From positions 12,479 through 76,478 of the forward strand of contig DAOTTI010000012.1 of assembly GCA_034437795.1 (NCBI GenBank): a stretch of 64,000 nucleotides of DNA, in the 5' to 3' direction. Shown here piece after piece: positions 5,002-44,378 of the stretch. This stretch comes from Chloroflexota bacterium (GTDB lineage Bacteria > Chloroflexota > UBA11872 > UBA12225). Numbering within the stretch: position 1 is the stretch's first letter; every line of letters starts with the position of its first letter. A model generated the notes under the pieces. The model did no database searches. It saw only the letters and a program-made list of their open reading frames with translations, and was not told where the DNA came from. Made by a program: the position numbers and the translations under genes.

Positions 5002-5226
5002 TAGCCTGGCGATTTCAAATGCGAAGCCCTCTCCCGGAGGGAGAGTAGCGAGTAGCGAGTGCCGAGTAACGAGCAGCGAGTGGCGAGGCCCCCAACGCTC
5101 GCCCAAAGGGAGACGGAACTCCTCGCTCTGCCAGAGGGAGCGGGGGCTCCTCGCTCTGCCAGAGGGGGCTCCTCGTCCTGCCAGAGGGAGACGGAACTCC
5201 TCGCTGGCCGTGGAGAGGCCAGGTTA
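5002..5226. repeat. Expanded MITE-like family B copy with internal heptamer (GAGTAGC-type) and CTCCTCGCTCTGCCAGAGGG tandem units
   Basis: Starts TAGCCTGGC and ends GCCAGGTTA, contains a CCCTCTCCC/GGGAGAG hairpin. The terminal TTA is the recD2 stop codon. Confidence 0.6.
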
Positions 5227-8040: not shown

Positions 8041-8331
8041 CCCACTATGGGATGAGCGCCCATGAACGACGGGATAGCGCCCGCGCCGCGCCGGGTGTGC
8101 AACCAGTGTCCACGACTGGTGGAGCCCTCACCCTTGCCCGGGGTTCCGGCTGGAGGCGGGACGACTAACAGGGAGAGGGAACGCAATGGCGCCCGCACGG
8201 CGTAGGTGGTTGCACAGGCGCGCCTGCCGCGACGCGCTGAACTGCAGCGCCTGGGCGGCGCCAGCCGGGGCTGCACGGCCGCGCCTGTCGGCACGCGCTC
8301 CGTAGCCAGCCAGACGGTAGCATGATGGCTC

Positions 8332-10261: not shown

Positions 10262-10371
10262 ACGACCCTGACTAGCAGCGGCGCCTTCACCGCCGCCCGC
10301 TGCGCAGGCTCCCGCTCTCCCACAGGGAGAGGGAACCGCCCTCGCCCCGGCCCCTCCCAGAGAGAGGGAAC

Positions 10372-10690
10372 TCATCGCTCGACCGCGAGAGGGGAGCCGG
10401 CGCCGGTGACGACCACTTCCTGTCCTTCGAGCCGCAGGCAGGCGCCCCGGTCGCTGGCAAGGCGGCGCATGGCCTCCACGATGGCCAGCCCGTCGCCGCG
10501 GGCAGGATCGAGCAGGACCGGGTGGTTCTGCTCGTCGCGCCGCAGCGGGACGAACGAGACCCGCGCCACCTGGCGGTCGCGCACCAGGCAGCGCAGCAGC
10601 AGGCCATCGCGCCGGCGGCGCATAGGTTCCCAGTCGAAGATGTAGTTAGTGCGGGCCCCGGCAGCCTCCTCGGGAGTGCATTTCCTGGAA
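10372..10690 (-). pseudogene. 3' remnant of a CapA/PGA_cap-like metallophosphoesterase gene
   Basis: LLLRCLVRDRQVARVSFVPLRRDEQNHPVLL...IVEAMRRL...LRLEGQEVVV resembles the C-terminus of CapA-family proteins. The upstream part is replaced by the AT-richer island. Confidence 0.5.
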
Positions 10691-10889
10691 CAACGGCGGC
10701 AAGGAAGGTAGTCTGAACCAGCAGTTGGGCGCCGCCGAACCGGGTCTCGCGGCGGCTGAGCCCGTTGGGCTGTCACCCGATGATATGGAGCGCCAGCGGC
10801 CCGGGCAACAGCACGCCAGAAGCGGGGTACACCGGCCGCTTTGCAGGACGGCGCCAGGCCCGATGCAGTTAGCTCCTCGCTGTCCGGCG

Positions 10890-12005
10890 CTACCGGACCT
10901 TGAGGATGTTGTTGCAGTTGGACCAGCCGACCACCTTCATGTTCGTGGCCGAGAAGCTGACGCTGGCGCAGCCGTAACGCCACGTGTACTCGCTCGCCTG
11001 CTGCGGCGTGCCCTGCACCGCCGCCACCTCTTGCTTAGTGGAACCCAGCGTGAACGTGCTGGCAGGTACTGCGGTAGGCCGGTTTGCTGCACCTTGCGTG
11101 CTACTAGCCGTAGTCGGCTGCCTGGCTGAAGCAGCCATAGTGGCCTGGGCAATTCTCGCTGCCTCTTGCGTCGCTTTCGCAGCAACTGCGGCGGCCTCTT
11201 GCGTCGCTCTGGCGGCCGCTGCCGCGGCTGTGGCTCCCGCTTCAGCAGTGGGGCGAAGGCGCAGCGCCTCGCCACTAAACGAACTGACCCCGAGGGCGGT
11301 CACGGTTTCGATCGCGGAGAGTGCACCTGCGTAGTTCCCTGCCTGCAAGAGCGACCCCGCGGCACCCAGGTGATCGGAAGCAGCCGCGTCTATCGCCGGG
11401 TCGATCACGTTACTGGCACCTATCAACCAGGCTTCAACCTGCTCCGCTCGCTCCGACCGCGCGGACACGGCACCATTGTCGTCCCGAACGCTCCAGAGCG
11501 CTACGCCCTCGACGGCGGCGATGACCTGCCAAGGCTTGCCGACCATGTCCTTCGGTGCCCACGCAATAAGCCACGTGCCGGCAGCATACGACTGAAGCCA
11601 GGTCCAGTCCGGAGATTGACCGACGAGGAAGCTATGGACGGAAATTCCCACACCAGCCGACCTCCGATCCGCCACGGCAGCGACAGCTTGTGCGGGCTGC
11701 ATCCGAGGGAAGAGAGGGCGCAGTGGCGTGGGGAGGGCGTGTGTCGAGGTGGGCACCGTGCGGAGGGCAGGTGTTGAAGTGGGCAGCATCGGAGGCGTGG
11801 AACGTGCCCCAAACAGCGTGACGCTGCCTCCGCTTGAAAGGTACGCTACTCCGATGGCGGTGATCACAGAGCCCACCAGCCAACCACCAGCCCGGCGTCC
11901 CAGACGTCCTCCCGATTTGGACGGTAGTCCGCTGTTGTTGGCCCCGCAATACGCGCAATAGTTGCAATGCGCCGGGATTGTCTTACCGCAGCGACGACAC
12001 CTCAC
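10890..12005 (-). CDS. Zinc-ribbon membrane protein with C-terminal SmpA/BamE-like small domain
   Basis: N-terminal CRRC...CAYC, one hydrophobic helix, Pro/Thr and Ala-rich linkers, C-terminal FTLGSTKQEVAAVQGTP...WRYG...VSFS...VVGWSN. Confidence 0.7.
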   Translation of the reverse strand: MRCRRCGKTIPAHCNYCAYCGANNSGLPSKSGGRLGRRAGGWLVGSVITAIGVAYLSSGGSVTLFGARSTPPMLPTSTPALRTVPTSTHALPTPLRPLFPRMQPAQAVAAVADRRSAGVGISVHSFLVGQSPDWTWLQSYAAGTWLIAWAPKDMVGKPWQVIAAVEGVALWSVRDDNGAVSARSERAEQVEAWLIGASNVIDPAIDAAASDHLGAAGSLLQAGNYAGALSAIETVTALGVSSFSGEALRLRPTAEAGATAAAAAARATQEAAAVAAKATQEAARIAQATMAASARQPTTASSTQGAANRPTAVPASTFTLGSTKQEVAAVQGTPQQASEYTWRYGCASVSFSATNMKVVGWSNCNNILKVR

Positions 12006-12092
12006 AAGATTCCATCATACACAGGGTGCGAAAACTGCGGTAACAAGCAAGCTCTCGCGCGGCGCTCCAGTCGGTCTAGGGCGTGTGCCCTA

Positions 12093-12413
12093 TCAGGGCC
12101 GGCACTTTCTGCACGCACGAAATCCGCATCGACGGGCTTCTTGCGTCGAGGAAAATAGCCGCCGGCTGCTCCCGCCAATCCTACGGGCCCACCGGCAGGA
12201 TGGCAGGTGGTAGATCAGGCTATGCGCGCTCGCAACTAACTGCGTGCCCTGAGCGGCTGGACCCCGTGTCACGGTCGCGGTTACGGCTTGCCTCTGAGTA
12301 GGCACGTGTGCCGGTGCAGCCACGTATGCGGTTGTCCGGGAACTAGCCCGCGTAGGGTTGGCAGGCGACGCACTCGGGTTTGCAGTGGCGCGCCGCGCCT
12401 TGGCGATCCTCAT
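12093..12413 (-). CDS. Small protein with C-terminal Ada-like metal-binding domain
   Basis: IYHLPSCRWARRI...FSSTQEARRCGFRACRKCRP matches the YH...C...GFRACxxCxP pattern. ATG at 12413 sits 2 nt after the kinase TAG. Confidence 0.65.
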   Translation of the reverse strand: MRIAKARRATANPSASPANPTRASSRTTAYVAAPAHVPTQRQAVTATVTRGPAAQGTQLVASAHSLIYHLPSCRWARRIGGSSRRLFSSTQEARRCGFRACRKCRP

Positions 12414-12415
12414 AC

Positions 12416-13660
12416 CTACGGCCCGAGGAGGCTCCCGAGCCAAGATTTCGGCCGCGCCACCACGGTGGCGAGCGACCCGCAGTGCGGACAGTGAGGTGCA
12501 GACTGGGGCATGTCTTTCCCACAGGTAGGACACGGTTGGTTGGGAACCAACTGAGCGCCACAGTGCTGGCAGTAGATCTCCGAAGCTAGATTAGGCCTAG
12601 CACAGTGGCGGCAAAGTGGCCAGGAGGCAGTACTGGCTGCGACAGGTGGAGTGATCCGGTGTTGAACTTGCGCCCGTGCGCAGTATGGACATTGCAGCGC
12701 GCGTTGCTGGCGAAAGTGGCCATTTGCGCACTGCACCAGGGTCTGTTCCGCCTCGCCCAAGGCTTGCTCCCACTCACTAGGAGATGGGCGACTAGTTGGA
12801 GCCGAATGACCGGATCCGAAGCACCGTACCACGAGTTCCGCTACCTTCGGATGCAGGAGATCAAGCGAGAGCCCTGAAGGGGCACGCACTAGAGCTCGGT
12901 TCACCTGTCCGTATGGAAAGAGGCCCTGCCGTATCTTCTCGGCGATATCAGGAGGCTCGCCAGGACCAAGCCACCGCGACCGGAACGGATGGTTTCCTTC
13001 CATGAGGAGCTGGAACACTAATACGCCCAGAGCGAAGGCATCGTGTGACGGCGTTCGCGCCTGGCGTTCGAATGATTTGCCTTGCAGTTCCGGCGGCGTG
13101 TACTCTGGCTTGCCGACCGGGCAGGAATACAGCCGTCGCACGCCGTTCTGTTGCACCTCCACCTGGAATGAGTCCGTGTCGATCAGCGTAACGAGCGCTT
13201 GCCTCGTCAGCAGAACGTTGGACTCGTTCAAATCACCGACAACGTATCCGCGTGCGTGAACCGCTGTCACTGCCGCAGCCAGATTGCGAGCGGATCTGTG
13301 GAGATACCTGGAATCAAAATTTGGCAGGGTCCTGGAGCGTAGACGGGGATTAAAGACTGTCAACACCTTGACGGCGTCAGTGATCCGAGGCATTAGATAA
13401 CCCACGACGCGCCCTTTGCCATCAGCTATCAGATCCACCGGCCACGCGATCGACGCGTGTCCAATCGAGCTACTCGGATCTGCAGGGGGATTGGCAACCA
13501 TGTGGCTGAGCTTCTCGGAGTAGCCGTCCCTCGGTCCAGGCACATACAGCTTCGCGACGAGAGCGGGTTCATGGGCGACCGTGTAAACGACACCCTCGCC
13601 CCCACGAGCCAACACCTGCCCGAGTTGCAGGGGGCCCTTCGAGCACCGGAGGTCCGTCAT
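12416..13660 (-). CDS. YegI-like protein kinase with C-terminal zinc ribbons (TerY-P triad)
   Basis: LARGGEGVVY, VAKLY, VVGDLNESNVL, LIDTDSFQ, GKPEYTPPELQG, DAFALGVLVFQLL. Cys clusters C..GH, CPYC, CRHC...CQHC, CPTC...CPHC. Confidence 0.9.
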   Translation of the reverse strand: MTDLRCSKGPLQLGQVLARGGEGVVYTVAHEPALVAKLYVPGPRDGYSEKLSHMVANPPADPSSSIGHASIAWPVDLIADGKGRVVGYLMPRITDAVKVLTVFNPRLRSRTLPNFDSRYLHRSARNLAAAVTAVHARGYVVGDLNESNVLLTRQALVTLIDTDSFQVEVQQNGVRRLYSCPVGKPEYTPPELQGKSFERQARTPSHDAFALGVLVFQLLMEGNHPFRSRWLGPGEPPDIAEKIRQGLFPYGQVNRALVRAPSGLSLDLLHPKVAELVVRCFGSGHSAPTSRPSPSEWEQALGEAEQTLVQCANGHFRQQRALQCPYCARAQVQHRITPPVAASTASWPLCRHCARPNLASEIYCQHCGAQLVPNQPCPTCGKDMPQSAPHCPHCGSLATVVARPKSWLGSLLGP

Positions 13661-13676
13661 GTGATGGCCCGAGCCT

Positions 13677-14447
13677 CTACCCTCGTTGAGTGAACAGCCG
13701 CCGGGAAGCGATGACGAGTGTCTTGTCGTCGTCGGTACGGGCGTTCACCCGCTCCGACGACAGAAAGCGCTGGAGGTGCTGCTCGGCTTCAACGATGTCG
13801 TTCGAATCGGCAACCAGCGCGAATAGGGGAAGAAAGAAGGGCTCGTGCGGGGTATAGGACGGCAACTGCACCGCTAAATGCAAGAGGCCGTCGGTCAGTG
13901 CGGCGAAAGCCAGCGGCCTGTCCAAGCGCACGTGTATGTCGAGGCCGTCGAGCGCTCCATCGCTAGTCAGGAAGGGCACCTCGTTGGCGTACTGGCCACG
14001 CTGCGGCCTAAGCAGGAGCCGCAATGCCATCTCGGCATCAAGCACCACAACGATCCCGTCGCCCACCTGAGCTGCAACGAGCACCTCCTCAGTTGCAACG
14101 ACGCCGCAGAGTGTCGTGGCGAACGACCGGACCGGAGCCGACTCCCGCTCAGCATATTGGATCACGGCGTTGCGAGCCTGCTTGAAAGCCTCTAAAACCA
14201 ATGCTTCCCAGTCGTCAGGACCCGATGCAGCCAGCATGGCACGTAGTGCCGCGTCGCAGAACGCCCGGGTAGCCACATCTGCGCCCTCGCGTGAGCGCAA
14301 TGCAGAGCCCGCGCCGTCGCCGATGGCCATCACGAGTGTCCGGTCATGCACTCGGCATGCGAATGAGTCCTGACAGTCCGCTCCCTTCGCAGCGTGGGAG
14401 GAACCAACAGCCGAGGCTGCGATAATGCGCCAGGAGCAATCAGGCAT
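13677..14447 (-). CDS. PP2C-family phosphatase, YegK-like (TerY-P triad)
   Basis: ASAVGSSH...CQDS, IGDGAGS, FATTL, QVGDG, LTDGL, RTDDDKTL. Start placed at ATG 14447. Confidence 0.9.
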   Translation of the reverse strand: MPDCSWRIIAASAVGSSHAAKGADCQDSFACRVHDRTLVMAIGDGAGSALRSREGADVATRAFCDAALRAMLAASGPDDWEALVLEAFKQARNAVIQYAERESAPVRSFATTLCGVVATEEVLVAAQVGDGIVVVLDAEMALRLLLRPQRGQYANEVPFLTSDGALDGLDIHVRLDRPLAFAALTDGLLHLAVQLPSYTPHEPFFLPLFALVADSNDIVEAEQHLQRFLSSERVNARTDDDKTLVIASRRLFTQRG

Positions 14448-14461
14448 CGGCTCGCCGCGCG

Positions 14462-15184
14462 CTACGAGTGGGACGTGTCCACCTGCCCCCAACCGACGGG
14501 CGGGAGCGGCACTTGCTCGCCCGGCCTCGACTGGGCGACCACCGAGACGCTCTTGGAGAGCCACTGGAAGAGCTCGCGAAAGGCCAGCCCCTTTAACCTT
14601 ACGGGAGGACGCTGATCGGAGAAACGCGACAGCACCTGCAGATCCGCCCCTTCCACGCCAACTGCGTAAAACGTGACGCCCTTTCGTGCTTCTTCGGCCC
14701 TAATCTCGTCCGCCGCGGCTTGCCACCCAAAGTCCGTTGGATGCCCATCCGTGATCAGAAACATCCACGGGCGGAAATAGTCAATGTTGTCCCTCCGATA
14801 GATGGCCTTCCTATCCCTGATAAGCGATAGCGCCCTTCGAACCGCTTCGCCCATGGGCGTTGCTCCGCTCGTTACCAGCACTGGCGGGGCGAAAGCATCA
14901 ACCGTAACGAACGCCTGCTCAGCATCGAATGGGATCGCGCCGCCAGCCCCTTTAACGTCCAGAGCCTGCACGGTGCCACCGAAGGTAACTATGGCAACTT
15001 CCACACGCAGAGACACGAGTGGGTCGGACCTAACTGCTTCAGCGAACTCCTTAAGACCCTGGTTTAGCTCCTGGATCGGGTCGCCCGACATCGAGGAAGA
15101 TGTATCCAGGACCAGCACCAGTGGGCACCGAGGCTCTGGGTTGTCAGCGAACTCGACGCTCTCAAGAGGCTGCTGAAGCGTCAT
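14462..15184 (-). CDS. vWA domain protein TerY/YegL-like (TerY-P triad)
   Basis: NPEPRCPLVLVLDTSSSMSG MIDAS motif, SGATPMG, YFRPWMFLITDGHPTD, FRELFQWLSKS. Confidence 0.92.
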   Translation of the reverse strand: MTLQQPLESVEFADNPEPRCPLVLVLDTSSSMSGDPIQELNQGLKEFAEAVRSDPLVSLRVEVAIVTFGGTVQALDVKGAGGAIPFDAEQAFVTVDAFAPPVLVTSGATPMGEAVRRALSLIRDRKAIYRRDNIDYFRPWMFLITDGHPTDFGWQAAADEIRAEEARKGVTFYAVGVEGADLQVLSRFSDQRPPVRLKGLAFRELFQWLSKSVSVVAQSRPGEQVPLPPVGWGQVDTSHS

Positions 15185-15291
15185 TCACTGGTACTCCTGG
15201 GTCGCCATCCCACTGATCCCTGCCCAAAGGGCGAAGCCTCACTGCACCGAGCCTTGCCTTCATAGGCTCAGCGCTTTACGCAGCCACCAAT

Positions 15292-15321
15292 AATATACCA
15301 CAACGCTAGCTTGTGATTCAA
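15292..15321 (-). promoter_or_regulatory. Sigma-70-type promoter for the TerY-P operon with an operator-like inverted repeat in the spacer
   Basis: Minus strand reads TTGAAT-N18-TATATT with an extended -10 TG. The spacer contains CACAA-N7-TTGTG. About 110 bp upstream of the vWA ATG. Confidence 0.6.
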
Positions 15322-16653: not shown

Positions 16654-16982
16654 TGAAGGCTCCTTCCAAGAACGTACCAATGTAGCGTCTGTGTCCGGCC
16701 GGTGGCGAGGGATCGCTCCTGCGACGACGAAGCAGTGGCTCACTGCCGGAGGCGGCTCTGGAGGTGATCAGACCCGGCCTGCGGAGCAGCAGCGCCACGC
16801 CGCCGCGTGGCGACCCGTTCGTAGCCGGCAACACGGCACGCGCGCACCACCTAACGGGGGAGCCAGCTGCCATGGCCAGCCCCACGTGGCCGGTGGCACC
16901 GCAGGCACTCTACACTAACGACCACCCAGGAAGTGGGCCCGGAGACCGGAGTACAGGAGAGATGGAAGGGAGCCTACGGCAG

Positions 16983-18371
16983 ATGAAGATGGAGACGGCA
17001 GAGGCGTTGACGGCCATACGAAGCACGCTGTCGAGGCGGCGGGTGGTGCACCGGCTGGTGGCTGCGGCCGCGGGAGCAACCGGCACGGCACTGGCGGTCG
17101 CCTGCGGACGAGCCGGTGGTGGGCCGGCCGGCGAGGGGATGCCGGCGCCGGCGAAAGGTCCGGTCACCATCCGGTTTGCCACGTGGGCCAGTGGGGCGCA
17201 GGCGGAGATGAAGGAGCGGCAGCTAGAGGCCTTCAACCAGGCGCAATCGGGTATCAAGGCCGTCCTGGAATCAACGTCCACCAGCGGCGAGTACTGGACC
17301 AAGATGCAGACGCAGTTCGCTGCGAGCCCGGAGGACGTGCCGGAGGTCTTCTGGCAGAGCGGATCGTACTTCCTGCAGTTCTCAGCCAGCGGCTGGCATC
17401 TGGACCTGGGGCCTTACGTCAAGCGCGACAAGTTCGACCTGACCAAGCACAACCGGCAGCTTGAGGTGGAGGAGTATCAGGGCAAGCTGTATGCGCTACC
17501 GTACGGCACCGGGGGCGTGGTGATGTATTACAACAAGAGCCTCTTCGACGCAGCTGGGGTCAGGTATCCCACGGAGACGTGGACCTGGGACGACGTGCGA
17601 GCCGCGGCGCAGAAGCTGACCCGGCCAGGCGCGGCCGAGACCGGCGGCCAGTGGGGGTTCGTCGCTTACCCGAACGCCGGCGAAACCGGCTACCTCCCGT
17701 TCGTCTACGCCAACGGCGGGGCGCAGCTGAACAAGGAGCGCACGCGGGTCCTGCTGGACCAGCCACAGACGATCGCCGCATTCGAATGGCTGACCGATAA
17801 CATCTACAAGCACCGGATCATGCCGAGGCCGGGCGAACTGAGGCGCGCCCCGGGGCAGAACGACGACTTCATGACCGGTAAGGTGGCTATGTTCATCGGG
17901 GGCACGTGGCGGCTCTCCGACTACATGCCGATGCAGGACTTCCAGTGGGACATGGCCCACGTCCCGCTTTCCCCCACGACCAGGAAGCGGGGCACGACGT
18001 TTAACGAGAACCCGGTCTCGATCCCCCGGTTCACCAGGGTGCCAGAGGCGGCGTGGGCGCTGGCGAAGTTCCTCAATGAGGAGAAGGCGCAGAAGATCAT
18101 GGGGGAGTCCAAGCGTAAGGCGCCGACGCTGAAGACCGCCGTCAGCGACCCGAACGGGTTCCTGAAGCCGCCGCCGGCCAACATCCGGGTAGCCGCCGAT
18201 CTGTACGCTTACGCCCAGGCGCTGCCGTTCGTGGCCTGCCCGGCGGCGATGAACGAGGCGATCAATCCAGAGCTCAACGCCATCTACAACGGGACGAAGC
18301 CGCCGGCTGAGGCGCTGCGGGCGGCAACGCAGGCAGGCAATGCGGTGCTGGCCGCCAATAAGTGCAGCTAA
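16983..18371 (+). CDS. ABC-type extracellular solute-binding protein, family 1 (TAT/lipoprotein)
   Basis: LSRRRVV...LAVAC leader, DLGPYVKRD, YALPY...MYYNKSLFD, WTWDD, FMTGKVAM. Confidence 0.9.
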   Translation: MKMETAEALTAIRSTLSRRRVVHRLVAAAAGATGTALAVACGRAGGGPAGEGMPAPAKGPVTIRFATWASGAQAEMKERQLEAFNQAQSGIKAVLESTSTSGEYWTKMQTQFAASPEDVPEVFWQSGSYFLQFSASGWHLDLGPYVKRDKFDLTKHNRQLEVEEYQGKLYALPYGTGGVVMYYNKSLFDAAGVRYPTETWTWDDVRAAAQKLTRPGAAETGGQWGFVAYPNAGETGYLPFVYANGGAQLNKERTRVLLDQPQTIAAFEWLTDNIYKHRIMPRPGELRRAPGQNDDFMTGKVAMFIGGTWRLSDYMPMQDFQWDMAHVPLSPTTRKRGTTFNENPVSIPRFTRVPEAAWALAKFLNEEKAQKIMGESKRKAPTLKTAVSDPNGFLKPPPANIRVAADLYAYAQALPFVACPAAMNEAINPELNAIYNGTKPPAEALRAATQAGNAVLAANKCS

Positions 18372-25505: not shown

Positions 25506-25575
25506 CGCTGTCGTGGCCTGGCGTTGGGGGGCGGGACTTCCGCCGAGCCGACGTTCAACCGCGCCGAGCTGACGT

Positions 25576-26670
25576 TCAACCGGCAGGCGCGGCCGTGCCC
25601 GCTGGACCTGCGGCCGGCAGGGCGTGGTGGACGCGCTGCGAAAAGCGTTGGGCGGCCACCTGGGAGATAAGGGGGCGGTAGATGGAGTTGTCCAGGTGGT
25701 GCTCGTACCAGCCAGCGTAGGTGCCGTTGGCGAGGTGCGACCCGATGCGATCGGCTTCCTGCAGCAGCGTCCAGAGGTTATGGGTGGCGCGGTTGGAGAA
25801 GCCGGCGAGGCCGGCAGCGCGCAATCCATCGAGGCCCCACCGGTGGCAGGCGGGACAGGGGCAGGAAGCGAGGGTCTTCACCTCATCGTGGCTGGGCGGG
25901 CGCCCCCGCCAGGAGCCGAGGTTGGCGATGACGCGATCTCCGCTGCCGGGGGACTGGACGATGCCGCGGGCGGCGCGGTTGCGCCAGCCGGACGAGTCGC
26001 AGGAGTCGAGCTCAAGCAGCGCGGCGAGGTGGAGGGTGGCGGTGCCGCCGATGCCGAAGACGTGGAGCTGGCGGCCGGACAGGCGCCGCCGCGCGCGGCG
26101 GACGCCGTCGAGCACCTCGGCGTAGGGGACGGCCTGTGGCGCGCGGAGGAGGTTAGGGACGATGCCGCCCAGGCCGACGGCTGGCTTCTGGCGCAGGCGC
26201 TCGTCTTCGTGGAGTTGGCTGAGATAGTCATCCAGGTGGCGACTGATGTGGATGACGGGGACGTAGCCGTCATGCCGGTAGGCGCGGTTGATGGCCATGG
26301 TGCGCTCAAGGCAGCGCCACTGCTCGGTCTCGCTCATGGCGGGCGTGGGAATGTAGTCCTGAGGAACGACGTACCAGTCGGGGCGGGCGTGGCGGACGAA
26401 GGTCTCGTACTCGTCACGGGGGACCTCGCCGCCCTTAGAGAGGAAGGCAAAGGCGCCGTTATCCAGGTAGACGGCGACGCGGCCCGCTGGCCGGATGCCC
26501 AGATAGGCGTGGAGACCCTGCTCCATGGCCAGGCGGCGCTTGCGAGGGTTGGTGTGGAACTCGAAGTAGGAGACCATGACCGCCCGGAGCTGGGGCAGGT
26601 AATAGGGAGACTCAGGGTCCCAGACGCGGGGCTGGAGGTTCTTGAGGCTGAGGCCGGCGACGACGAGCAC
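25576..26670 (-). CDS. tRNA-guanine transglycosylase-fold protein (divergent, DpdA/TGT-like)
   Basis: VYLDNGAF, PQDYIP, VGLGG, LHVFGIG, LDSCDSSGW and Zn-binding CPCPAC...H(NL) motifs appear in TGT order. Confidence 0.85.
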   Translation of the reverse strand: MLVVAGLSLKNLQPRVWDPESPYYLPQLRAVMVSYFEFHTNPRKRRLAMEQGLHAYLGIRPAGRVAVYLDNGAFAFLSKGGEVPRDEYETFVRHARPDWYVVPQDYIPTPAMSETEQWRCLERTMAINRAYRHDGYVPVIHISRHLDDYLSQLHEDERLRQKPAVGLGGIVPNLLRAPQAVPYAEVLDGVRRARRRLSGRQLHVFGIGGTATLHLAALLELDSCDSSGWRNRAARGIVQSPGSGDRVIANLGSWRGRPPSHDEVKTLASCPCPACHRWGLDGLRAAGLAGFSNRATHNLWTLLQEADRIGSHLANGTYAGWYEHHLDNSIYRPLISQVAAQRFSQRVHHALPAAGPAGTAAPAG

Positions 26671-26674: not shown

Positions 26675-28576
26675 TCATCTCATTGGCTGGGAGGAGTGGG
26701 GCGCAGCGGCCATCTGCTGGCGAGCTTTCTCGAGCCTCTCGAACGCATCCTCCTCTTCGCGCTCACCCTTGGATTCCGGCTCCTTGATGCGGACCAGCAC
26801 AGGGAAGTTGATGAACTGGCCGGAGAGGATGGCTTCCCCGACGTCGAGGTCGGGCAGCATCCTGGCTTCTTCCTCGCCGAGGGTCTCCACGACACGCCGG
26901 ACGAAGCTCTGGTCGGCTGGGTTGACCATGCGCATGATGACGTAGGAGTTGCACTGGGAGAGGGTGGTCTCATCCAGGCGCGAGGGACGCTGGCTGATGA
27001 GGATCAGCCCCACGTTGAACTTGCGGCCTTCCTGGGCGATCTGCCTGGTGACGGTGATGGCCCGCTGCTCGGCGGCCGTGGCGGCATGCGCTGGCGCGAA
27101 GTTGTGCGCCTCCTCCAGGATGAGTAAGACGGGCAGCTGGAGATCGCCGCTGACCTTAGCGTCAAGGAGCTGGTTGGCGATGATAGTGTAGATGGTGGCC
27201 TGGAAGTCCGAGGTGTAGCCGGCAAGCGCGACGACGCTGATGCCGCCGTAGCGTACAAGCTCCTTACGGTCGACGGGAAGTGGCTGAGCGTCGCGCGCGA
27301 CTGTCTTATTGGTTTCTTCCATGCGGCGAAGTACTGCGGCGGCCTGGTAGGCGCGCTTCTTGATGCCTTCAAGGGTACGCCTATCGGTGCTGGAGTAGGT
27401 GCCGAGAGCGGTCCAGCCCCAGTTGACGAGCTGCTGACGGTGGGGTTGGCTATTTTGCCGCAGGACGACTTCGCCGGCCTCGGCAATGTTGGCAATGAGC
27501 CACATGTCCCGCTTTACGCCGTAGGTCAGTAGTTCCGGCTTGCCGATAAGGTCTGCAAGCCAACTGGTACGTTGCTTCATCTCGGAGTGATCGGGCACGA
27601 CGAAGGCTTTCGCGGTACGGAACACATCGTCGAAACGGGTGCGCATCGTGTCGGTGAGTTCGTAGCCCAGGGTGTCGATGACCTTGGCGACGGTGTCGCT
27701 CTCCTCCTCGAAGACGGGGAATTGGGCGTAATAGCGGTGGACTTTGCCACTGAGAGCCGGCACATCCGCCAGGCCGGTGTAGTCCCCATGAGGATCGAAG
27801 ATGACGATGGGGTAGTGCTTGGCGGCGAGCTGCTCGACGATGCGGCGGGCGGTCCAGCTCTTGCCCGCGCCGGTCATGGCCAGGATGGCGAGGTGGCGGG
27901 TAACGATGGCGTGGCCGTCGACCATGACGGTCACGTCGGGGCGGTTGGAGAGTGTGGCGATGTCCAGCGCGCGGGCCGTTCGCTGCTGCAGCTCACCGAG
28001 CACGACCCGAGCGATGTCGTCGGGGTCTGGGCGGTAGGCGCTGGTGGCGGGCTGGGGAGGATAGCGGAGGGGAGCCAGCTTGGCACCGGCGCCATCGTCG
28101 AGGGGCTCGCAGCCGAGCACGCGGCAGACGGCGGTGACCATCTCGCGGCTGAGCGAGATCACCGTGTCGAAGGGATCGGTGCGAGTGGCGGCGAGCTCGT
28201 GGCCGGCCTCTACCGGAAAGAGCGGGTTCAGGCGCTCAATGCGCTGGACCTTGGCCCAGACGCGGATCCGCTCCTTGCCGCCGGTCGGTGGCGGAGGGGC
28301 GGCGGCGCGCGCGGCGGGAGACGACGCGGTGGATGCTGCCGAGGCGCCATCCGTCGCGGGCGCGCCCGGGCGCCAGAGCTCGGCGTCAATGGCGATGATG
28401 TCCTGCTCGCGGATGGCCTCCTGATGGATGGCCAGACGGAACTCGCGGCTGGTGCTCTCGCCGACGATCGTGCCGACGTAGCGGTCGTAGCGGCTGGCGC
28501 GTGGCGCGGCTGGAGGCGGGGCCGGCGCGCTGCGCTCGGCGATGCGGAGCAGAGCGGGATCAAGTCGACGCGCCAT
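26675..28576 (-). CDS. HerA-family ATPase/helicase (HAS barrel + DUF87)
   Basis: N-terminal HAS-like barrel, RHLAILAMTGAGKS Walker A, LILEEAHNFAP Walker B, QEGRKFNVGLILISQRPSRLDETTLSQCNS. Confidence 0.92.
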   Translation of the reverse strand: MARRLDPALLRIAERSAPAPPPAAPRASRYDRYVGTIVGESTSREFRLAIHQEAIREQDIIAIDAELWRPGAPATDGASAASTASSPAARAAAPPPPTGGKERIRVWAKVQRIERLNPLFPVEAGHELAATRTDPFDTVISLSREMVTAVCRVLGCEPLDDGAGAKLAPLRYPPQPATSAYRPDPDDIARVVLGELQQRTARALDIATLSNRPDVTVMVDGHAIVTRHLAILAMTGAGKSWTARRIVEQLAAKHYPIVIFDPHGDYTGLADVPALSGKVHRYYAQFPVFEEESDTVAKVIDTLGYELTDTMRTRFDDVFRTAKAFVVPDHSEMKQRTSWLADLIGKPELLTYGVKRDMWLIANIAEAGEVVLRQNSQPHRQQLVNWGWTALGTYSSTDRRTLEGIKKRAYQAAAVLRRMEETNKTVARDAQPLPVDRKELVRYGGISVVALAGYTSDFQATIYTIIANQLLDAKVSGDLQLPVLLILEEAHNFAPAHAATAAEQRAITVTRQIAQEGRKFNVGLILISQRPSRLDETTLSQCNSYVIMRMVNPADQSFVRRVVETLGEEEARMLPDLDVGEAILSGQFINFPVLVRIKEPESKGEREEEDAFERLEKARQQMAAAPHSSQPMR

Positions 28577-28624: not shown

Positions 28625-30142
28625 CTAGGTCTGGGGGCGGAAGAGCCAGTCGCGATGCGTCATGTAGATCGCCTGGACGATGATGCGCCGCATCTCCGCG
28701 TCGGAGATCTCGCCCCGCTGGAGACTGACGCCGAGGTGATAGCGGATCAGCTTGGCGTAGGCGTCGGTGAGCCAGCCCGGCACGTGGGCATACTTGTCGG
28801 CAACGTCCAGGCCCACAGGGAAGCCGTAGCCGGGGAGCAGGCGGGCGTACAGGTAGGTGCGGCGGCAGGCCTCGGCAAGCTGGTCGGGACCGAGGGCTTC
28901 AAACACCTCGATGCGGATCGGCTCAGTGATCTCGGAGACGTGCAGGTAGCAAGCGCGGACCGCGGGGAAGCCGACGGGGCTGGGCGGGCGGAGGACGGAC
29001 CAGTCGGCCGTGGTGCTGAAGGACCCGCCCGGCAGGGCGATCTGGCCGCGGCGCAGGCCATGGTACTTGGAGATCGGCCAGGGCTCGGAATACTGGCCGG
29101 GCTGGAGGAGCATGGCCAGCAGGAGCGCATCGGTGTAGCCGAGGCGGTCGAGGAGGGCTTTGGAGGAGGTCAGGTCCGTGCGGCCGTACAACCGGTTGAA
29201 GTAATCGGTCTTTCCCTTCTCGCGCAGCTTTCGAAAGACCCGTTCCAGGAGGATCGTTTCGAGGAAGGCGCGGGAGGTGTCGCGCTCGACGACACCGCAG
29301 ATGACGGGCGCCGGCGTTCGCTGGCGGGCGCGCTCGATGAGCCGGCGATAGAGAAAGGCCATCCAGGCCAGTGGCTCGAACAGGTGGCGGCGGGCCCACT
29401 CGTCGGCACGGCGGGGGACGTGGGGGACCATGGCGGGGTAGATCTCGGCGGCGGCCTGGCGCAGGAAGTCGGCTTTGAGGGCCTGGCCCAGCGAAGGATC
29501 AGGGGCGTAGTGCTGCAGGAAGCGGTCGATATCCGCTTCCGTGAAAGGGGAGTGGCCGGCATAGGCGCCGACGAGGTAGACGAGCGGCCCGTGGAACATG
29601 AGCAGGCGCAGGTCAGGCGTGCGCTCCAGGGCGGAGAGGCCGCCCAGGAGCTCGGCGGTGATGCGGACGATATCGACGAAGTCCTTGCGCTCCTTGCTGC
29701 CCCCTTCGAGGTCGCCAAGGATCACGGGGTAGTAGCCGAAGCGCTCGCGCTCAGAGAGGTGGCGCTCGCCGGTGCGCACGGAGTACGAGCCGACGCGGAG
29801 CAGGATGGGAACCTGGCTGGAGAACTGGACCTGGCCTACGCCACCGTCGATGAAGGTGACGACCTCGCCCTGGAGGCTGGCCCACTCGGCGTCGGACACG
29901 GTGTGCACGGCCATGATCGGATCAGGGCGATTGATGGCTTTGCGGAGGTCGGTGACGAAGCGGGTAGTGTTCTTAAAGTAGTTGTCGCGCAGGCTCTCGG
30001 CAACGGTGAGGGCATTCGCCGCGAGCCGGAGCGGGAGGTAGCGCTGGGTCTGGAGATCGTGCAGGACGCCCTCTTCGGTGAAGGGTCGTGGCGGCAGGTC
30101 GCGGCGTGGCGCGGGCGTTCCACGTTGATGCGTCAGGGCCAT
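28625..30142 (-). CDS. NurA-family nuclease
   Basis: TFIDGG, RITAE, MFHGPL, CGVVER, PIRIEV and GYGFPVGLDVADKYA. Located immediately upstream of HerA. Confidence 0.82.
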   Translation of the reverse strand: MALTHQRGTPAPRRDLPPRPFTEEGVLHDLQTQRYLPLRLAANALTVAESLRDNYFKNTTRFVTDLRKAINRPDPIMAVHTVSDAEWASLQGEVVTFIDGGVGQVQFSSQVPILLRVGSYSVRTGERHLSERERFGYYPVILGDLEGGSKERKDFVDIVRITAELLGGLSALERTPDLRLLMFHGPLVYLVGAYAGHSPFTEADIDRFLQHYAPDPSLGQALKADFLRQAAAEIYPAMVPHVPRRADEWARRHLFEPLAWMAFLYRRLIERARQRTPAPVICGVVERDTSRAFLETILLERVFRKLREKGKTDYFNRLYGRTDLTSSKALLDRLGYTDALLLAMLLQPGQYSEPWPISKYHGLRRGQIALPGGSFSTTADWSVLRPPSPVGFPAVRACYLHVSEITEPIRIEVFEALGPDQLAEACRRTYLYARLLPGYGFPVGLDVADKYAHVPGWLTDAYAKLIRYHLGVSLQRGEISDAEMRRIIVQAIYMTHRDWLFRPQT

Positions 30143-31257
30143 CGGTCCGCCATCCCAGAGATAACGCGCAGGCGATATACGAGAGGGACGCCACCCCTCC
30201 TACCTGGCGGGAGCACACAAGTGCGCACTTTAATTAATGCACCGGCACGACGCGGCGTCAACGGTGAGCCAGGGGACGCCTGGCTGAGCGCCTGGCAGCG
30301 CTCCTGCGCCAAGAGCGGACTGACAGGAAAGACTATCGGGCGAGACGCGCTCCTCTTCTCGAGGCATCGCCCATCGTCGCAGCAGGCGGATCGCCAGCGG
30401 GTGGCTACGGGGAGATGCTGGTTCAACGCCAGCCGCTCGCGCGTGCCGTTGGAGAAGCGGAAGGTCAGTGAGGCGTAGTCGAACGGCGGATCGTCGCGAT
30501 GGATGGCGGCGTGGTGATTAGGGCAGACGAGCACCATGTTCTCTCGCTCGTCCTCGCCCCCGCGCGACAGCCACTGGATGTGGTGGGCGTGACAGAGACG
30601 ATAGCCGTAGCGGGTCCGCGGGTCGTAGAGGCACACCTGGCAGCGGCCGGCAGAGAGCTCCTGGAGCCGTTCCACGCGCTGCCGTGCGCGGTGCAGGTCG
30701 ACCGGCTCGAAGACGTACTTCAGCCGGCGCCCGTACTGGGCCTTGTCCTCGCGCAGGACGAGTGAGCGGGCGGCCTCGCCGTGGATCAGCCGCGCCTCGA
30801 ACTCGTCGTCAGGGTACAGCGCCACGCGGTCGAGCGCCGGCAGGTAGAGTGCGAACGCGACCAGGACCTGGTGATCGGCGTGGCTAAGGATGCGCACGGC
30901 AGCATGCCCCTGGAACGCCTGGCCGAGGCGCTGGCCGGCGGCCTTCACCTGGAGCGGCCGGATGAGCGGCTCGGCATTCGGCGCAACGTCGATATCGAAG
31001 TACCGGCTCCGGACCAAGTCGCCCCAGATGCGATAGCGCCCGTACCAGTAGTGTGGTAGATTGGTGGTGACAGCGCGCACCACGAGCCCGGCCGCCAGCA
31101 CATATTGACCATCGCGCTCACGGCGCGTGAACGCCCACAGGCTGTCGCCAGGACGAGCCGACAGCATGGCGGGGCTGCTCTGATTCAGGTGGTAGCCGAA
31201 CCAGAGGCGACGATCGCGGGCGTAGTTATCGGGCCGCCAGTAGTACAGCAGCGGCAT
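30133..31257 (-). CDS. HNH endonuclease with N-terminal PUA/EVE-like domain; the C-terminal ~90 codons are probably read-through
   Basis: CQVC...AHHIQWLSRGGED..ENMVLVCPNHHAAIH HNH motif; N-terminal PGDSLWAFTR...YVLAA segment. Start uncertain (31257, 31278 or 31326). Confidence 0.8.
   Translation of the reverse strand: MPLLYYWRPDNYARDRRLWFGYHLNQSSPAMLSARPGDSLWAFTRRERDGQYVLAAGLVVRAVTTNLPHYWYGRYRIWGDLVRSRYFDIDVAPNAEPLIRPLQVKAAGQRLGQAFQGHAAVRILSHADHQVLVAFALYLPALDRVALYPDDEFEARLIHGEAARSLVLREDKAQYGRRLKYVFEPVDLHRARQRVERLQELSAGRCQVCLYDPRTRYGYRLCHAHHIQWLSRGGEDERENMVLVCPNHHAAIHRDDPPFDYASLTFRFSNGTRERLALNQHLPVATRWRSACCDDGRCLEKRSASRPIVFPVSPLLAQERCQALSQASPGSPLTPRRAGALIKVRTCVLPPGRRGGVPLVYRLRVISGMADRWP
30219..30237. 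promoter_or_regulatory. Palindrome AAGTGCGCACTT plus TTAATTAA, possible operator/promoter of the nurA operon
   Basis: Perfect 12-bp palindrome at 30219-30230 overlapping an AT-only octamer, about 80 bp upstream of the nurA ATG. Confidence 0.4.
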
Positions 31258-31475
31258 CTGCGCGGCATTGTCGCGCACATGTCTCGGCTCACCCTCCCTG
31301 GACGATGGCCGCGGCTCCAGTGTCACTACCGGGAGTGGCCGGCTGAGCAGTTGCGCGCACAGATTACCCGGGTTGCTGCTGAGCCGTGCTGCGGCACAGT
31401 GTCGCGGGCACCCCCCGCCACCCTTCAGCCGGTATGGTGCAGTCGGTCAGCTAGGCCGAAAAAGCGGAAGGGCCT

Positions 31476-31660: not shown

Positions 31661-31904
31661 GCCCGCCCGCAGGCGAGGCAGCGTGGCGCCTGGCCCGGAA
31701 GGCTGGTTCGCGGGCGAGAGACGTGCTACGGTGTAGACGACCCATGGGAATAGCCAGTGGCGAGTAGCGAGTTGTTCCCCTCGCCCAGAGATCCCGCGGA
31801 CGCGGGACGGCCAGAGGGCGAGGGGGCGCTCCGGCAGTTGAAGGGTGGTGGGGTGGCGCCACTGCATCACTGCATCACTGTCTACGGAGCAAAGGAGGCG
31901 CGAG

Positions 31905-33374
31905 ATGGCAGTGCAGACGCTTCGTCGTGGCAGGGTGGGAACGCACGCGCCGGCGGGGGCTGGTTCCGGACCGGCCGGCACAGGGCAGATCGTTCGGCGT
32001 GAAGGGGCGGCAACGGACGAGTGCAGAGAGGGACCGGCCGGAGCGGCCAGCGCGGCCGGAGCGGTGCGGCGGCAGGTCCTGCTGGCGCTAGCGGGCGGCA
32101 TGGCGGGCGGACTGGCGGCGGCCTGCGGCCAGCGGCAGGAGCCGGGTGCCGGCACGCGCGCCCAGACGCCGGTGACACTCCGCTTTGCCGCGGACCGGGC
32201 GCGCCTGGATGCGGGCGTGCAGTCAGTGATCGACGCCTTCAACGCCCGCGGCGGCCCGGTGCGCGTGGAGCCGGAGCTGGTTACGGGCTCGATCGTGGAT
32301 AAGATCCTGACGCAGGCGGCGGCCGGTGACCCTCCCGATCTGACCCACACCCACCCACGGGACTACCATCCCTGGGTGAATGCCGGCGCCCTGCTGGCCC
32401 TGGATGACTACATGAAGCGGGACCGGCAGAACGTGCCGGACATCGTGCCGGTGGCGCTCGACTACTGGGCGCGCGACGGCCGGCGCTGGGCCATGCCCAA
32501 CAACCTCTCGGTCCAGAACATCTACTTCAACAAGGAGATCTTCGATCGGCGCGGCCAGAAGTATCCCGATCACTACGAGCGGGAGGGGAAGTGGACCTTT
32601 GAGACCTACCTGGACCTGGCCCGCCAGCTCACCACCGGCACCGGTGAGCATAAGATCTTCGGCGCCACGTGGCGGCACACGCTGCTGGACATCCAGCTGG
32701 GGTTCATCTGGCCGTTCGGCGGCGACCTGTGGGACAAGGACCGCATGAGGACGGTGCTGGACAGCAAGGAGTCGCTGGAGGCCATCCAGTTCCAGGCCGA
32801 CCTGACCCATAAGTACGGGGTGGCGCCCACCGACGAGGAGTGGCAGCAGTTTGCCTCAGCACCGGCCGCGTCGTGGGGGGCGGCCTTCTCCGCCGGCCGC
32901 GCGGCGATGGAGCTGCAGCCGAACGATTCGCTGCTGCAGCACGTGGTGCCGGCTGCCTTCCCGAAGGGGATGGTACCCATGCCCAAGGGGCGGGCGGGGC
33001 GGATCATCCGCGGCCTGGCGGTGGGGGCGCATATTACCAAGGGCTCGCGCCACCAGGACGCGGCCTGGGAGGTGGCGAACTTCCAGGCAGGCAAGGAGTC
33101 TGAGAAGATCATGCTCGGGCTCCACGTCTCCCTGCCCTGGCACAAGTCCACGCTGGCCGACTTGGAGCGGTCGATGCCGCTCTATCCATGGGAGAGCGGC
33201 GCCTACTACGCCGAAGGGGTGCGCCGGTTGCGGGCCACGCCGTACGTGAACCGCTTCACGGAGATCAGCAATCTCTATAGCCAGCACTACAACATGGTCC
33301 GCCACGGGCAGAAGACGGCGGCCCAGATGATGGCCGAGATCAAACCGCAGATCGACGCCCTGCTGCGGGGCTGA
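31905..33374 (+). CDS. ABC-type extracellular solute-binding protein, family 1 (TAT/lipoprotein)
   Basis: AAGGAGG RBS then ATG 31905. VRRQVLL...LAAAC, AAGDPPDL, LDDYMKRD, YFNKEIFD. Confidence 0.9.
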   Translation: MAVQTLRRGRVGTHAPAGAGSGPAGTGQIVRREGAATDECREGPAGAASAAGAVRRQVLLALAGGMAGGLAAACGQRQEPGAGTRAQTPVTLRFAADRARLDAGVQSVIDAFNARGGPVRVEPELVTGSIVDKILTQAAAGDPPDLTHTHPRDYHPWVNAGALLALDDYMKRDRQNVPDIVPVALDYWARDGRRWAMPNNLSVQNIYFNKEIFDRRGQKYPDHYEREGKWTFETYLDLARQLTTGTGEHKIFGATWRHTLLDIQLGFIWPFGGDLWDKDRMRTVLDSKESLEAIQFQADLTHKYGVAPTDEEWQQFASAPAASWGAAFSAGRAAMELQPNDSLLQHVVPAAFPKGMVPMPKGRAGRIIRGLAVGAHITKGSRHQDAAWEVANFQAGKESEKIMLGLHVSLPWHKSTLADLERSMPLYPWESGAYYAEGVRRLRATPYVNRFTEISNLYSQHYNMVRHGQKTAAQMMAEIKPQIDALLRG

Positions 33375-42587: not shown

Positions 42588-43916
42588 TTACCGGCGCTTG
42601 GCCACCTCCTTATCCAGTAGCTCCTGCGCCCGCCGGTGGGCCTCGGCCAGGGCTTCCTTCGCGATCTTCTGGTTGCGGTAGGCGGCGACCAGCTCCTCGC
42701 CGATGACGTTCATCATCTCCTGGTAGTTGGTGACGATGGGGTAGGGTTTGCTGTCCGGGCGCCGGATCTGCCTGGTGACGGGGATCCAGGCCGGGTCGGT
42801 GGAGTAGGGGGGCTTGTCGAAGTTGGCGAGGGCGACGGGGACGTAGCCGGCCGCCGAGTTCCAGGCGAGGTCGCTGCTTTCCTTATTCATGAAGCGCATC
42901 ACGGTCCAGGCGAGGTCGCGGACCTTGCTGTCCTTGAACAGGACGATGTTGTTGGCCTGCAGCATGACCGTACGGGACTTCTTCTCCGGGTTGAGGGCAG
43001 TCATAAATTTCATGTCCGGCCAGTTCCGGCGGAACTCGGGGATATTCCAGGAGCCGCCGACCCAGAGCGCGACCTTCCCCGTCTCTCGCGGGTTCTGGAT
43101 GGCGTAGCCGGGCGGGATGGTGCACTGATCCTTCCAGATCAGATCCTGGAGGTACTGCAGCGTCTCTACCCCTTCGGGAGTATTGAACGTGAACCGGGTG
43201 AGATCCTTACTCATCCACTCCACGCCGTTCTGCAGGGCAAACTGCATGAAGTCGGTGGTCGAGGACTGGTCGGTGGAGTAAGCGTACATCATGTTGCCCC
43301 AGCGCTCGCGGGAGCGGTCGGTCATCCTGATCGCCATCTCGCGGCGCTGGGCCCAGGTCTCCGGTGGGGTGGGGTCATTCCCACGGACGAAGCCGTACTC
43401 GCGCAGCAGGTCGGGGTTGAAGAACTGGTGCAGGGTGACCGTGGTGAAGGGCAGGGCGAAGGTGCGGCCGTTCTGCTGGGTGGAGACCAGCCGCGCGGCG
43501 CCGTGCCTGGCCACCAGGTCGATCCGGTCGGCCTTGACGTAGGGGTCTAGGGGCACGAGCGCCCCTCGGGACTCGTAGTCGGCCGTCCAGTAGTCCTTGA
43601 TCCGGGCGATGTCCGGAGGCGTGCCGGCGGCCATGGCGGCCAGCAGCTTGGTATTGTGGTCGTTCCAGCTGCCGTTGGAGGTGATGCTGAGCTTCACCTG
43701 GGGCCGCTCGCGGAAATAGTCGGGGAAGACCTGCTTTTCCAGGATCTCCACCTGTGGCTGGCCGCCGATGATCCACCACACCACCTCACCGGCGCCGGTA
43801 GGATCGGTGTTCACCTTCTCCGTGGAGGCGGGGGCCTGCCCGGCGCACGCTGCCAGGGCGAGGGCGCCGGTGGCGAGCGAGGCGCGGGCGAGTAGCTGGC
43901 GCTTGGTCAGACGCAT
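42588..43916 (-). CDS. ABC-type extracellular solute-binding protein, family 1
   Basis: LTKRQLL...LAAC leader, AAGTPPDIA, LDPYVKAD, FFNPDL, GKVAL..GGSW. Confidence 0.9.
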   Translation of the reverse strand: MRLTKRQLLARASLATGALALAACAGQAPASTEKVNTDPTGAGEVVWWIIGGQPQVEILEKQVFPDYFRERPQVKLSITSNGSWNDHNTKLLAAMAAGTPPDIARIKDYWTADYESRGALVPLDPYVKADRIDLVARHGAARLVSTQQNGRTFALPFTTVTLHQFFNPDLLREYGFVRGNDPTPPETWAQRREMAIRMTDRSRERWGNMMYAYSTDQSSTTDFMQFALQNGVEWMSKDLTRFTFNTPEGVETLQYLQDLIWKDQCTIPPGYAIQNPRETGKVALWVGGSWNIPEFRRNWPDMKFMTALNPEKKSRTVMLQANNIVLFKDSKVRDLAWTVMRFMNKESSDLAWNSAAGYVPVALANFDKPPYSTDPAWIPVTRQIRRPDSKPYPIVTNYQEMMNVIGEELVAAYRNQKIAKEALAEAHRRAQELLDKEVAKRR

Positions 43917-44378
43917 GGCTTGTCTCTCCTCAACCGATCGCCGGCCGTGTATCAGCCGGGCTCAAAGTGAGCGTAACGTGAATGGGCTGGGCGGGCAAGC
44001 GCCGGTATTTTGAATAGCGGCCTTGACGAAGATGTAACCCACGCAGGGGGCCGCATTTAACACCGCGCGCGCAGACTGTCCCCATGTCGCCGGCGCCGTG
44101 CCGCGGCGAGCCGGGTTCGTTCACCAGCGGCGCCATCACCCTCTCCCTGTGGAGAGTGAACCGGTCGCCAGCGACGGGTAGGCCGGGCTAGCTCGGGATG
44201 TTCACGCGGGGCGTCAGTGTCTTCTCCGCGGGGTGAGGGCCCCGCCGGTACAGCCGGTCGTCGCTGGCCGTGGTCGGGTTCCTCTCCCTGGGGGTAAGGG
44301 CGCTGGCTGTGAGCGATCCGGGCCTTCACGGAGTTTCGGGGCCGGCGGCGCGAATAGCCGTCCCGACGGAGCACTCTC

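Follow-up and report, generated by a model that had tools for sequence, protein, structure and literature searches.

The subject of this report is a gene cassette built around a divergent TGT-like enzyme, found in a 64,000-nucleotide stretch of a Chloroflexota bacterium (contig DAOTTI010000012.1), which is called the window below and in which coordinates are counted unless another locus is named. Judging from sequence comparison the cassette is horizontally mobile and widely spread, and it is read here, with somewhat more confidence than doubt, as a Dpd-like restriction-modification system marking the DNA of its own host. In the window the operon comprises five minus-strand genes in the order EVE-HNH, NurA, HerA, TGT and short DUF6884; independent gene calls on a matching 48.8-kb contig of JGI metagenome 3300039521 agree with those made in the window. 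The features of the operon are as follows.

30133..31278, minus strand: EVE/YTH-like (PUA-like) reader domain fused to an HNH nuclease of McrA type; candidate type IV (modification-dependent) restriction enzyme
28625..30142, minus strand: NurA-family nuclease, 505 aa (Pfam NurA at 1e-8, entire model covered)
26675..28576, minus strand: HerA-type hexameric DNA translocase/ATPase, 633 aa (Walker A AMTGAGKS, Walker B VLLILEEAH)
25576..26670, minus strand: TGT-like catalytic-domain-only enzyme, putative DNA-guanine/preQ0 transglycosylase, 364 aa, GTG start (catalytic D70, D105 and D225; pocket G168-G169-I-V-P and H203-x-F205-G; zinc ligands C270, C272, C275 and H297)
25541..25582, no strand: tandem duplication of 21 nt, 95% identical, at the TGT-DUF6884 junction and spanning the TGT stop codon
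25041..25505, minus strand: short DUF6884 protein, 154 aa, ATG at 25505 (Pfam DUF6884, E=4e-17)

The TGT-like protein carries TGT active-site and zinc-site motifs in the very order listed by an earlier note on this DNA, which had been made from the letters alone: LDNGAF (residues 69-74), PQDYIP (103-108), GLGG (166-169), HVFG (203-206) and DSCDSSGW (222-229), then CPCPAC (270-275), exactly 21 residues and H297. Each of these motifs is unique in the six-frame translation of all 64 kb. The N-terminal motif of the bacterial queuosine Tgt, TP.F.PV (TPxFMPVGT), was said to be absent and was indeed not found in the protein by a motif scan. When the protein was compared with the PDB by phmmer, it matched ArcTGT of P. 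horikoshii (1iq8, E=7e-5), and the alignment pairs D70 with D95, F74 with F99, D105 with D130, G169-I-V with G196-V197-V198, F205 with F229 and D225 with D249, as well as the motifs GGIVP with GGVVP, HVFG with HLFG and CPCPAC...H with CSCPVC...H; the zinc ligands C270, C272, C275 and H297 correspond to C279, C281, C284 and H307 of ArcTGT. A profile made of 30 family members reached ArcTGT at E=7.8e-11 and Salmonella DpdA (7ui4) at E=6.1e-5, in the latter case with the catalytic aspartates aligned with D95, D130 and D256 and the GG-x pocket aligned as well. Because the phmmer and profile alignments to ArcTGT and DpdA pair them, the motifs are regarded as homologous TGT sites and not as chance occurrences. 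None of the catalytic, pocket and zinc residues varies among the 30 aligned homologues (this alignment starts one residue late, hence its numbering is one lower than that of the protein). The preQ0 (7-cyano-7-deazaguanine) nitrile is bound by the backbone of the segment G196-V197-V198 in ArcTGT and G206-G207-M208 in DpdA (PMC10164549), and it is to this segment that GG(I/V)VP of the family corresponds. A structure prediction, for which the earlier note had also asked, gave an AF2 model with a pLDDT of 88.2 and the TGT fold: the top 50 Foldseek matches were all TGTs, with ArcTGT 1iq8 as the best one (TM 0.72, E=1.2e-12).

By its sequence the TGT-like ORF belongs to a separate clade within the TGT superfamily, whose proteins consist of the catalytic TIM barrel and the zinc subdomain only. 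No Pfam domain beyond TGT was found in the 364 residues, nothing follows the zinc subdomain, and the final ~25 residues are without conservation; ArcTGT has 582 aa, and the protein is concluded to be devoid of the ArcTGT C-terminal tRNA-binding (PUA) domains. With a threshold of E<=1e-3 a word-indexed search returned homologues from 1,472 clusters of 90% identity, and the best of these are 60-80% identical across the full length of ~340 aa; most have a precomputed PF01702 match, and they bear either no name or the automatic one of '7-cyano-7-deazaguanine tRNA-ribosyltransferase'. When 1.84 billion representatives (50%-identity clusters) were searched exhaustively with the profile, 662 of them matched at E<=1e-3, among which 89 reached E<=1e-30, and because there are just 662 of them the family is considered small and well separated from the huge canonical Tgt and ArcTGT families. 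Against the family profile ArcTGT scored 44.8 bits, DpdA 25.5, phage 9g DpdA 16.9 and E. coli Tgt 0.5. The more distant relatives (100-150 bits) are proteins of 340-400 aa, too; with the core of ArcTGT they score 30-85 bits, and the PADLOC DpdA model matches several of them; of two family members tested against that model (PDLC02807), one, from locus L033, matches at 1e-9 over 65 residues.

The assumption that the protein is an accessory enzyme apart from the housekeeping Tgt is supported by these scores of 0.5-3 bits to bacterial Tgt (2.9 bits for the canonical Tgt of locus L058) and by canonical tgt genes near the cassettes of three relatives, directly downstream in one species and within 7 kb in two more.

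L058 10912-12207: canonical tgt near the cassette
L049 4738-5931: canonical tgt near the cassette
L064 17393-18520: canonical tgt near the cassette

A housekeeping or archaeal-type tRNA TGT was rejected as an identity of the window protein, with scores far below the cut-offs, tRNA-binding domains missing and canonical tgt beside relatives. An origin from phage-derived DpdA was rejected too: no phage homologue was found by tblastn in 50,697 phage records, and the BFVD fold matches were weaker than the PDB TGT matches.

A pattern scan with one genome per species (~185,000 species genomes) detected the family in at least 138 species of about ten phyla. The 80 best species-level loci of these 138 species, whose proteins are 53-70% identical to that of the window, were taken for context, and the ORFs called in all loci were classified by jackhmmer. 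The loci come from Chloroflexota, Cyanobacteria (plasmids included), Acidobacteriota, Latescibacterota, Poribacteria, Planctomycetota, Bacteroidota, Deinococcota, Rubrobacteraceae and other groups, with candidate phyla among them. This patchy spread, combined with high identity across phyla, points to horizontal transfer. On the record of one plasmid copy every gene is annotated 'hypothetical'; this label and that of 'tRNA-ribosyltransferase' are probably misannotations of the family by the pipelines.

The gene content was counted in the 55 loci where the sequence upstream of TGT extends for 5.2 kb or more. HerA is present in 52 of them (95%) and DUF6884 in 50 (91%), while NurA (33 loci) and a protein of ~540 aa in its place (15 loci) together account for 48 (87%). 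In 49 of the 55 the TGT gene starts at most 15 nt from the gene before it. A gene of a YhhQ-type (Vut_1) preQ0 transporter lies within the operon in 14 loci (25%), and QueC is near the cassette in four (7%); among all 80 species-level loci QueC was met in six, QueD once and QueE once. YhhQ of E. coli is a queuosine-precursor transporter, and a search with it recognises the Vut_1 genes in 19 loci. There are two main gene orders, [YhhQ]-DUF6884-NurA-HerA-TGT and DUF6884-HerA-540aa-TGT, TGT being last in both, and in Adhaeribacter aerolatus the locus reads QueD-QueC-DUF6884-NurA-HerA-TGT. A third architecture was met on plasmids of cyanobacteria and in one genome of Rubrobacteraceae; it amounts to a mobile version, in bacteria, of the archaeal herA-mre11-rad50 set, with the base-exchange enzyme added. 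One locus has the composition DUF6884, Z1 helicase, TGT and YhhQ. Among cultured carriers, Adhaeribacter aerolatus NBRC 106133, Coleofasciculus sp. LEGE 07092 and Microcoleus spp. possess the NurA form, Tychonema sp. LEGE 06208 the 540-aa form, and Calothrix sp. PCC 7103 and Chlorogloeopsis fritschii PCC 6912 (plasmid p6912-1) the Mre11-Rad50 form.

L039 1755-11017 (also L041, L042, L036 and L086): third architecture, M78 peptidase, 352-aa protein, HerA, Mre11-like, Rad50/SbcC-like, TGT
L003 8355-9989 (and 15 other loci): conserved ~540-aa protein between HerA and TGT, NurA being replaced

The 540-aa protein showed no similarity to NurA in Pfam, PADLOC or hhalign comparisons, and no PADLOC 2.0 model exists for the cassette NurA, the 540-aa or the 352-aa protein. 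The possibility that the 540-aa and 352-aa proteins are divergent forms of NurA was rejected on the same grounds, as hhalign gave no similarity and Pfam and PADLOC no match. Occasional extras are HNH fused to HerA, UvrD-PDDEXK with DUF1232, and Macro-DarT; Mrr, Dnd genes, toxin-antitoxin pairs, methyltransferases and transposases are frequent neighbours, and DarTG is met as well. In two loci a tRNA gene (L010 456-528 and L009 1661-1733) lies just upstream of a YhhQ-DUF6884-NurA-HerA-TGT cassette, and these genes may be island integration sites.

In the window itself HerA matches DUF87 at 4.5e-24 (together with HerA_C) and NCBIfam NF040819 at 1.5e-49, and its Walker A and B motifs are intact. 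The herA stop codon (26675-26677) is followed by a spacer of 4 nt (TCCC) and the GTG start of the TGT gene at 26670, as the '4-nt coupling' of the earlier note had it; the gap between nurA and herA is 48 nt and that between TGT and DUF6884 70 nt. The DUF6884 gene downstream, the NurA gene and the breadth of cassette conservation are additions to that note. Both motifs defined for the DUF6884 domain, CxxxK and LSAxxG (PMC11701544), are present in the window protein as CGQCK and LSARYG. The gene order of the window is unusual, with EVE-HNH in the usual place of DUF6884; the nearest relative (80% identity) has the same order of HerA, TGT and short DUF6884, and the 21-nt duplication may be the scar of the rearrangement that put DUF6884 downstream. 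The conserved core of EVE-HNH stops near 30400, its homologues being ~285 aa long and ending with ...HLPxAA, and the copy of the window has lost the stop codon, which adds ~88 low-confidence residues and an overlap of 10 nt with the nurA start. Membership of EVE-HNH in the cassette was rejected, as its homologues are stand-alone genes in unrelated contexts and none occurs in 85 other loci. It is treated here as a putative neighbouring type IV-like nuclease and not as a conserved part of the cassette.

Beyond the fold, the conserved residues, the gene linkage and the phyletic pattern, which the data show, we infer for the cassette a DNA substrate, preQ0 as the base, a chemistry for DUF6884 and a restriction logic, which would combine in four steps. 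The TGT-like enzyme would flip a guanine out of double-stranded DNA, displace it through a covalent Asp225-C1' intermediate and insert preQ0 supplied by the host queuosine pathway or by salvage. HerA, translationally coupled to the enzyme, would provide ATP-driven handling of DNA, as DpdB does for DpdA. The DUF6884 protein would then process the preQ0 placed in the DNA, hydration of the nitrile to the amide (dADG) being one example, and the HerA-NurA translocase-nuclease would destroy DNA which is unmarked. The model for this scheme is the Dpd system, where DpdA swaps guanine in DNA for preQ0 only with ATP hydrolysis by the ATPase DpdB, and DpdC independently turns preQ0-DNA into dADG-DNA (PMC10164549); the Pfam domain carried by DpdC is DUF6884 (bioRxiv 10.1101/2025.02.24.639861). 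A Dpd-like model fits the cassette best, and each step has its counterpart: a catalytic core with a preQ0-type pocket, the HerA ATPase, a protein with the DpdC domain and an importer in 25% of loci. As a processive translocase-nuclease, swapped for other nuclease modules elsewhere in the manner common for restriction arms, HerA-NurA is the natural candidate for the restriction arm. A DNA substrate, which had been suggested from the spacing to herA, gains support from the almost constant association in one operon with HerA, NurA and the DpdC-type DUF6884.

Several observations weigh against this interpretation. The window protein scores 24.9 bits with Pfam TGT (PF01702), just below the gathering cut-off of 26.3, for which reason the label 'divergent' is apt; it gave no match to the PADLOC DpdA model at E<=0.01 and reached no NCBIfam cut-off. 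The proposed tie between DUF6884 and DpdC consists of a shared Pfam domain and a weak model match (the window protein fits PADLOC PDC-M57A at 1e-12 and the DpdC model at 3e-5), and the DUF6884 copy of the window is truncated, lacking a C-terminal domain of ~90 aa which the form usual in the cassette (~250 aa) has, and stands on the opposite side of the operon from the usual one. DpdB (the ParB/DndB-like ATPase) was found neither in the window cassette nor in the Pfam-annotated cassettes of nine relatives. Moreover, HerA-NurA is known as a resection machine of DNA repair. Finally, there is no preQ0 supply gene nearby in the window or in ~70% of related loci: jackhmmer searches with the E. coli proteins among window ORFs of at least 50 aa found no QueC, QueD, QueE, QueF, QueA, FolE, Tgt or YhhQ, and Pfam scans of ~50 composition-supported ORFs across the 64 kb found no deazaguanine genes, so that the earlier statement on queC, queD, queE and folE holds. 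The use of a host or salvaged base, proposed there as well, agrees with the relatives, in which YhhQ and QueC accompany the cassette in 14 and 4 of the 55 loci respectively.

The same genes can be read in other ways. Base-excision restriction, by which the enzyme would strip guanine or a phage 7-deazaguanine from invader DNA and leave an abasic site or adduct to be recognised by DUF6884 and degraded by HerA-NurA, is considered unlikely. If it were aimed at phages which shield their DNA with 7-deazaguanine, dPreQ0, dG+ or guanine would be pulled from the invader, DUF6884 would grip the lesion, be it abasic or covalent, and HerA-NurA, loaded at this site, would destroy the phage genome. It would suit the 7-deazaguanine/guanine type of the pocket, the lack of a preQ0 supply gene in most loci, the window included, and the adjoining EVE-HNH of the window as a candidate reader of modified bases; the DUF6884 member YfjM has also been recovered as an abasic-site lesion interactor and modelled flipping a base (PMC11701544). 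However, the YhhQ importer in 25% of operons and QueC or QueD in others are hard to explain unless free deazaguanine is consumed, and the known enzymes of the TGT family are exchangers, not hydrolases. The linkage to YhhQ and QueC also speaks against a module of DNA repair or recombination, in which HerA-NurA (or HerA-Mre11-Rad50) would resect breaks and the TGT-like enzyme with DUF6884 would replace or remove damaged guanines. For this role, which is given a still smaller chance than base excision, one may point to HerA, NurA, Mre11 and Rad50 as the archaeal end-resection set, to a characterised bacterial NurA-HerA resection complex (PMC9960219), to the third architecture joining TGT to HerA-Mre11-Rad50, to YaaA and DUF6884 being tied to oxidative-stress and lesion responses (PMC11701544), and to the metabolic flanking genes of the window with a composition ameliorated to the host. 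Nevertheless, the spread is patchy (138 of ~185,000 species genomes) with high identity across phyla, some copies reside on plasmids or beside transposases, and one partner nuclease can stand in for another (NurA, the 540-aa protein, Z1 helicase, UvrD-PDDEXK, HNH fusions), which is a pattern of defence type and not of core repair.

Least probable of all, and by a wide distance from the restriction-modification reading, is an archaeosine-type tRNA enzyme which would insert preQ0 into tRNA and stand beside DNA enzymes by accident. ArcTGT is admittedly the closest solved relative in sequence and fold, and the pipelines name homologues after the tRNA activity. Yet the ArcTGT C-terminal tRNA-binding domains are missing, the window protein scores 32.1 bits with TIGR00432 (archaeosine TgtA) against a cut-off of 350, in ~90% of loci the gene is packed closely into one operon with those of a DNA translocase and a nuclease, and the hosts carry their own Tgt, as the canonical tgt genes near three cassettes indicate.

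To our knowledge, 7-deazaguanine in DNA has so far been connected with a single bacterial system, Dpd, and with enzymes by which phages counter restriction. If the Dpd-like interpretation is true, the cassette would be a second and structurally simpler bacterial route to 7-deazaguanine DNA marks, in which a HerA-NurA resection motor takes the position that the helicase/PLD set has in Dpd; DUF6884 would gain a function outside DpdC and bacterial NurA-HerA a role in defence. As a compact system of four genes it would also let one study the link between base exchange and an ATPase, and the way in which sparse modified bases govern a processive nuclease. A new principle of self/non-self discrimination, with deazaguanine as an epigenetic Chi-like stop signal for the resection motor or with base excision directed at phage 7-deazaguanine, is a doubtful prospect.

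The cassette of the window is flanked by ordinary chromosomal genes for solute-binding proteins, amidohydrolases and GFO/IDH/MocA oxidoreductases. Its GC content (0.676) is just slightly under that of the flanks (0.696), thus there is no sign of recent acquisition. Beyond the 21-nt tandem duplication no flanking repeats or att sites were found around it, and a search for promoter-like sites gave none. An Rfam search revealed no preQ1 riboswitch or other RNAs in the window, and nine related loci gave two tRNA genes only. At least eight SBP_bac_1 solute-binding paralogues are interleaved in the window with amidohydrolase and GFO/IDH/MocA genes (examples at 137-1573, 16764-18371, 31845-33374, 42588-43961, 50708-52066, 52009-53676 and 54218-55750), which suggests a lifestyle of sugar or organic-acid scavenging. 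A helicase of the RecD2/YrrC type (967 aa, 5224-8127, minus strand) matches the RecD-like models of PADLOC and looks like a housekeeping RecD2. A protein with N-terminal DUF4062 and HEAT repeats (48477-49484, minus strand), which has no PADLOC match, adjoins an unannotated ORF of 385 aa (49603-50760, minus strand). A block of lower GC (61-65% as compared with ~70%) at 10300-15300 has an architecture like that of the TerY-P triad, PADLOC having matched the kinase domain only; it includes the following genes.

14462-15184, minus strand: VWA protein
13677-14699, minus strand: PP2C phosphatase
12416-13744, minus strand: Ser/Thr kinase with a double zinc ribbon
10890-12014, minus strand: zinc-ribbon protein

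In the literature searched, neither a NurA/HerA-TGT-DUF6884 cassette nor a link of NurA with TGT or deazaguanine is described, although an earlier computational mention is possible. The nearest known system is Dpd (DpdA-DpdB-DpdC with DpdD-K; Salmonella Montevideo and others). Its enzyme of the TGT superfamily agrees with that of the window in the catalytic Asp residues, in the GG-x backbone pocket and in the zinc site, and Dpd, too, has a partner with a DUF6884 domain, an ATPase partner, a linkage to preQ0 synthesis or YhhQ that recurs in relatives of the window cassette, and the lifestyle of a genomic island. The TGT-like family is, however, another clade: the window protein gave no match to the DpdA models, and with the family profile DpdA, at 25.5 bits, scores lower than ArcTGT. 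In place of the DpdB/ParB-like ATPase and of the helicase and PLD restriction genes DpdD-K, the cassette has HerA-NurA or other nuclease modules, and its DUF6884 protein is ~250 aa long with its own C-terminal domain (154 aa in the window) and weakly similar to DpdC. ArcTGT (TgtA, 1iq8) is the closest solved protein in sequence and fold, and all of its preQ0-pocket residues map onto the window protein, which nevertheless is a bacterial catalytic core only, in an operon with DNA enzymes and far under the TIGR00432 cut-off. DpdA of E. coli phage 9g (gp03) is an enzyme of ~320 aa which acts on DNA; it is likewise catalytic-domain-only and has DSSxW...AAxG after the nucleophile Asp in common with the family. 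Its score of 16.9 bits is very weak, the phage enzymes are without the CxCxxC zinc motif in the alignment, and they serve anti-restriction, not host defence.

The sole published pairing of HerA/FtsK with TGT in a predicted defence system is that of BRC (BREX-related capture), composed of PglZ, DUF6079, STAND, DUF4007, HerA/FtsK, GNAT and TGT and present in 45 taxa, with TGT in a subset only (PMC12839542). Its TGT was proposed to mark self DNA with 7-deazaguanine, and the authors found no homologue of DpdB or DpdC (PMC12839542). Compared by its published description, BRC differs from the cassette in having PglZ and BrxA/B/C-like parts, with no NurA and no DpdC. With the HerA-NurA end-resection complex of archaea and Deinococcus the cassette shares adjacent herA and nurA genes, full-length Pfam/NCBIfam matches and intact Walker motifs; here, in contrast, the pair stands in a mobile cassette together with a base-exchange enzyme, and in ~30% of loci a 540-aa protein takes the place of NurA.

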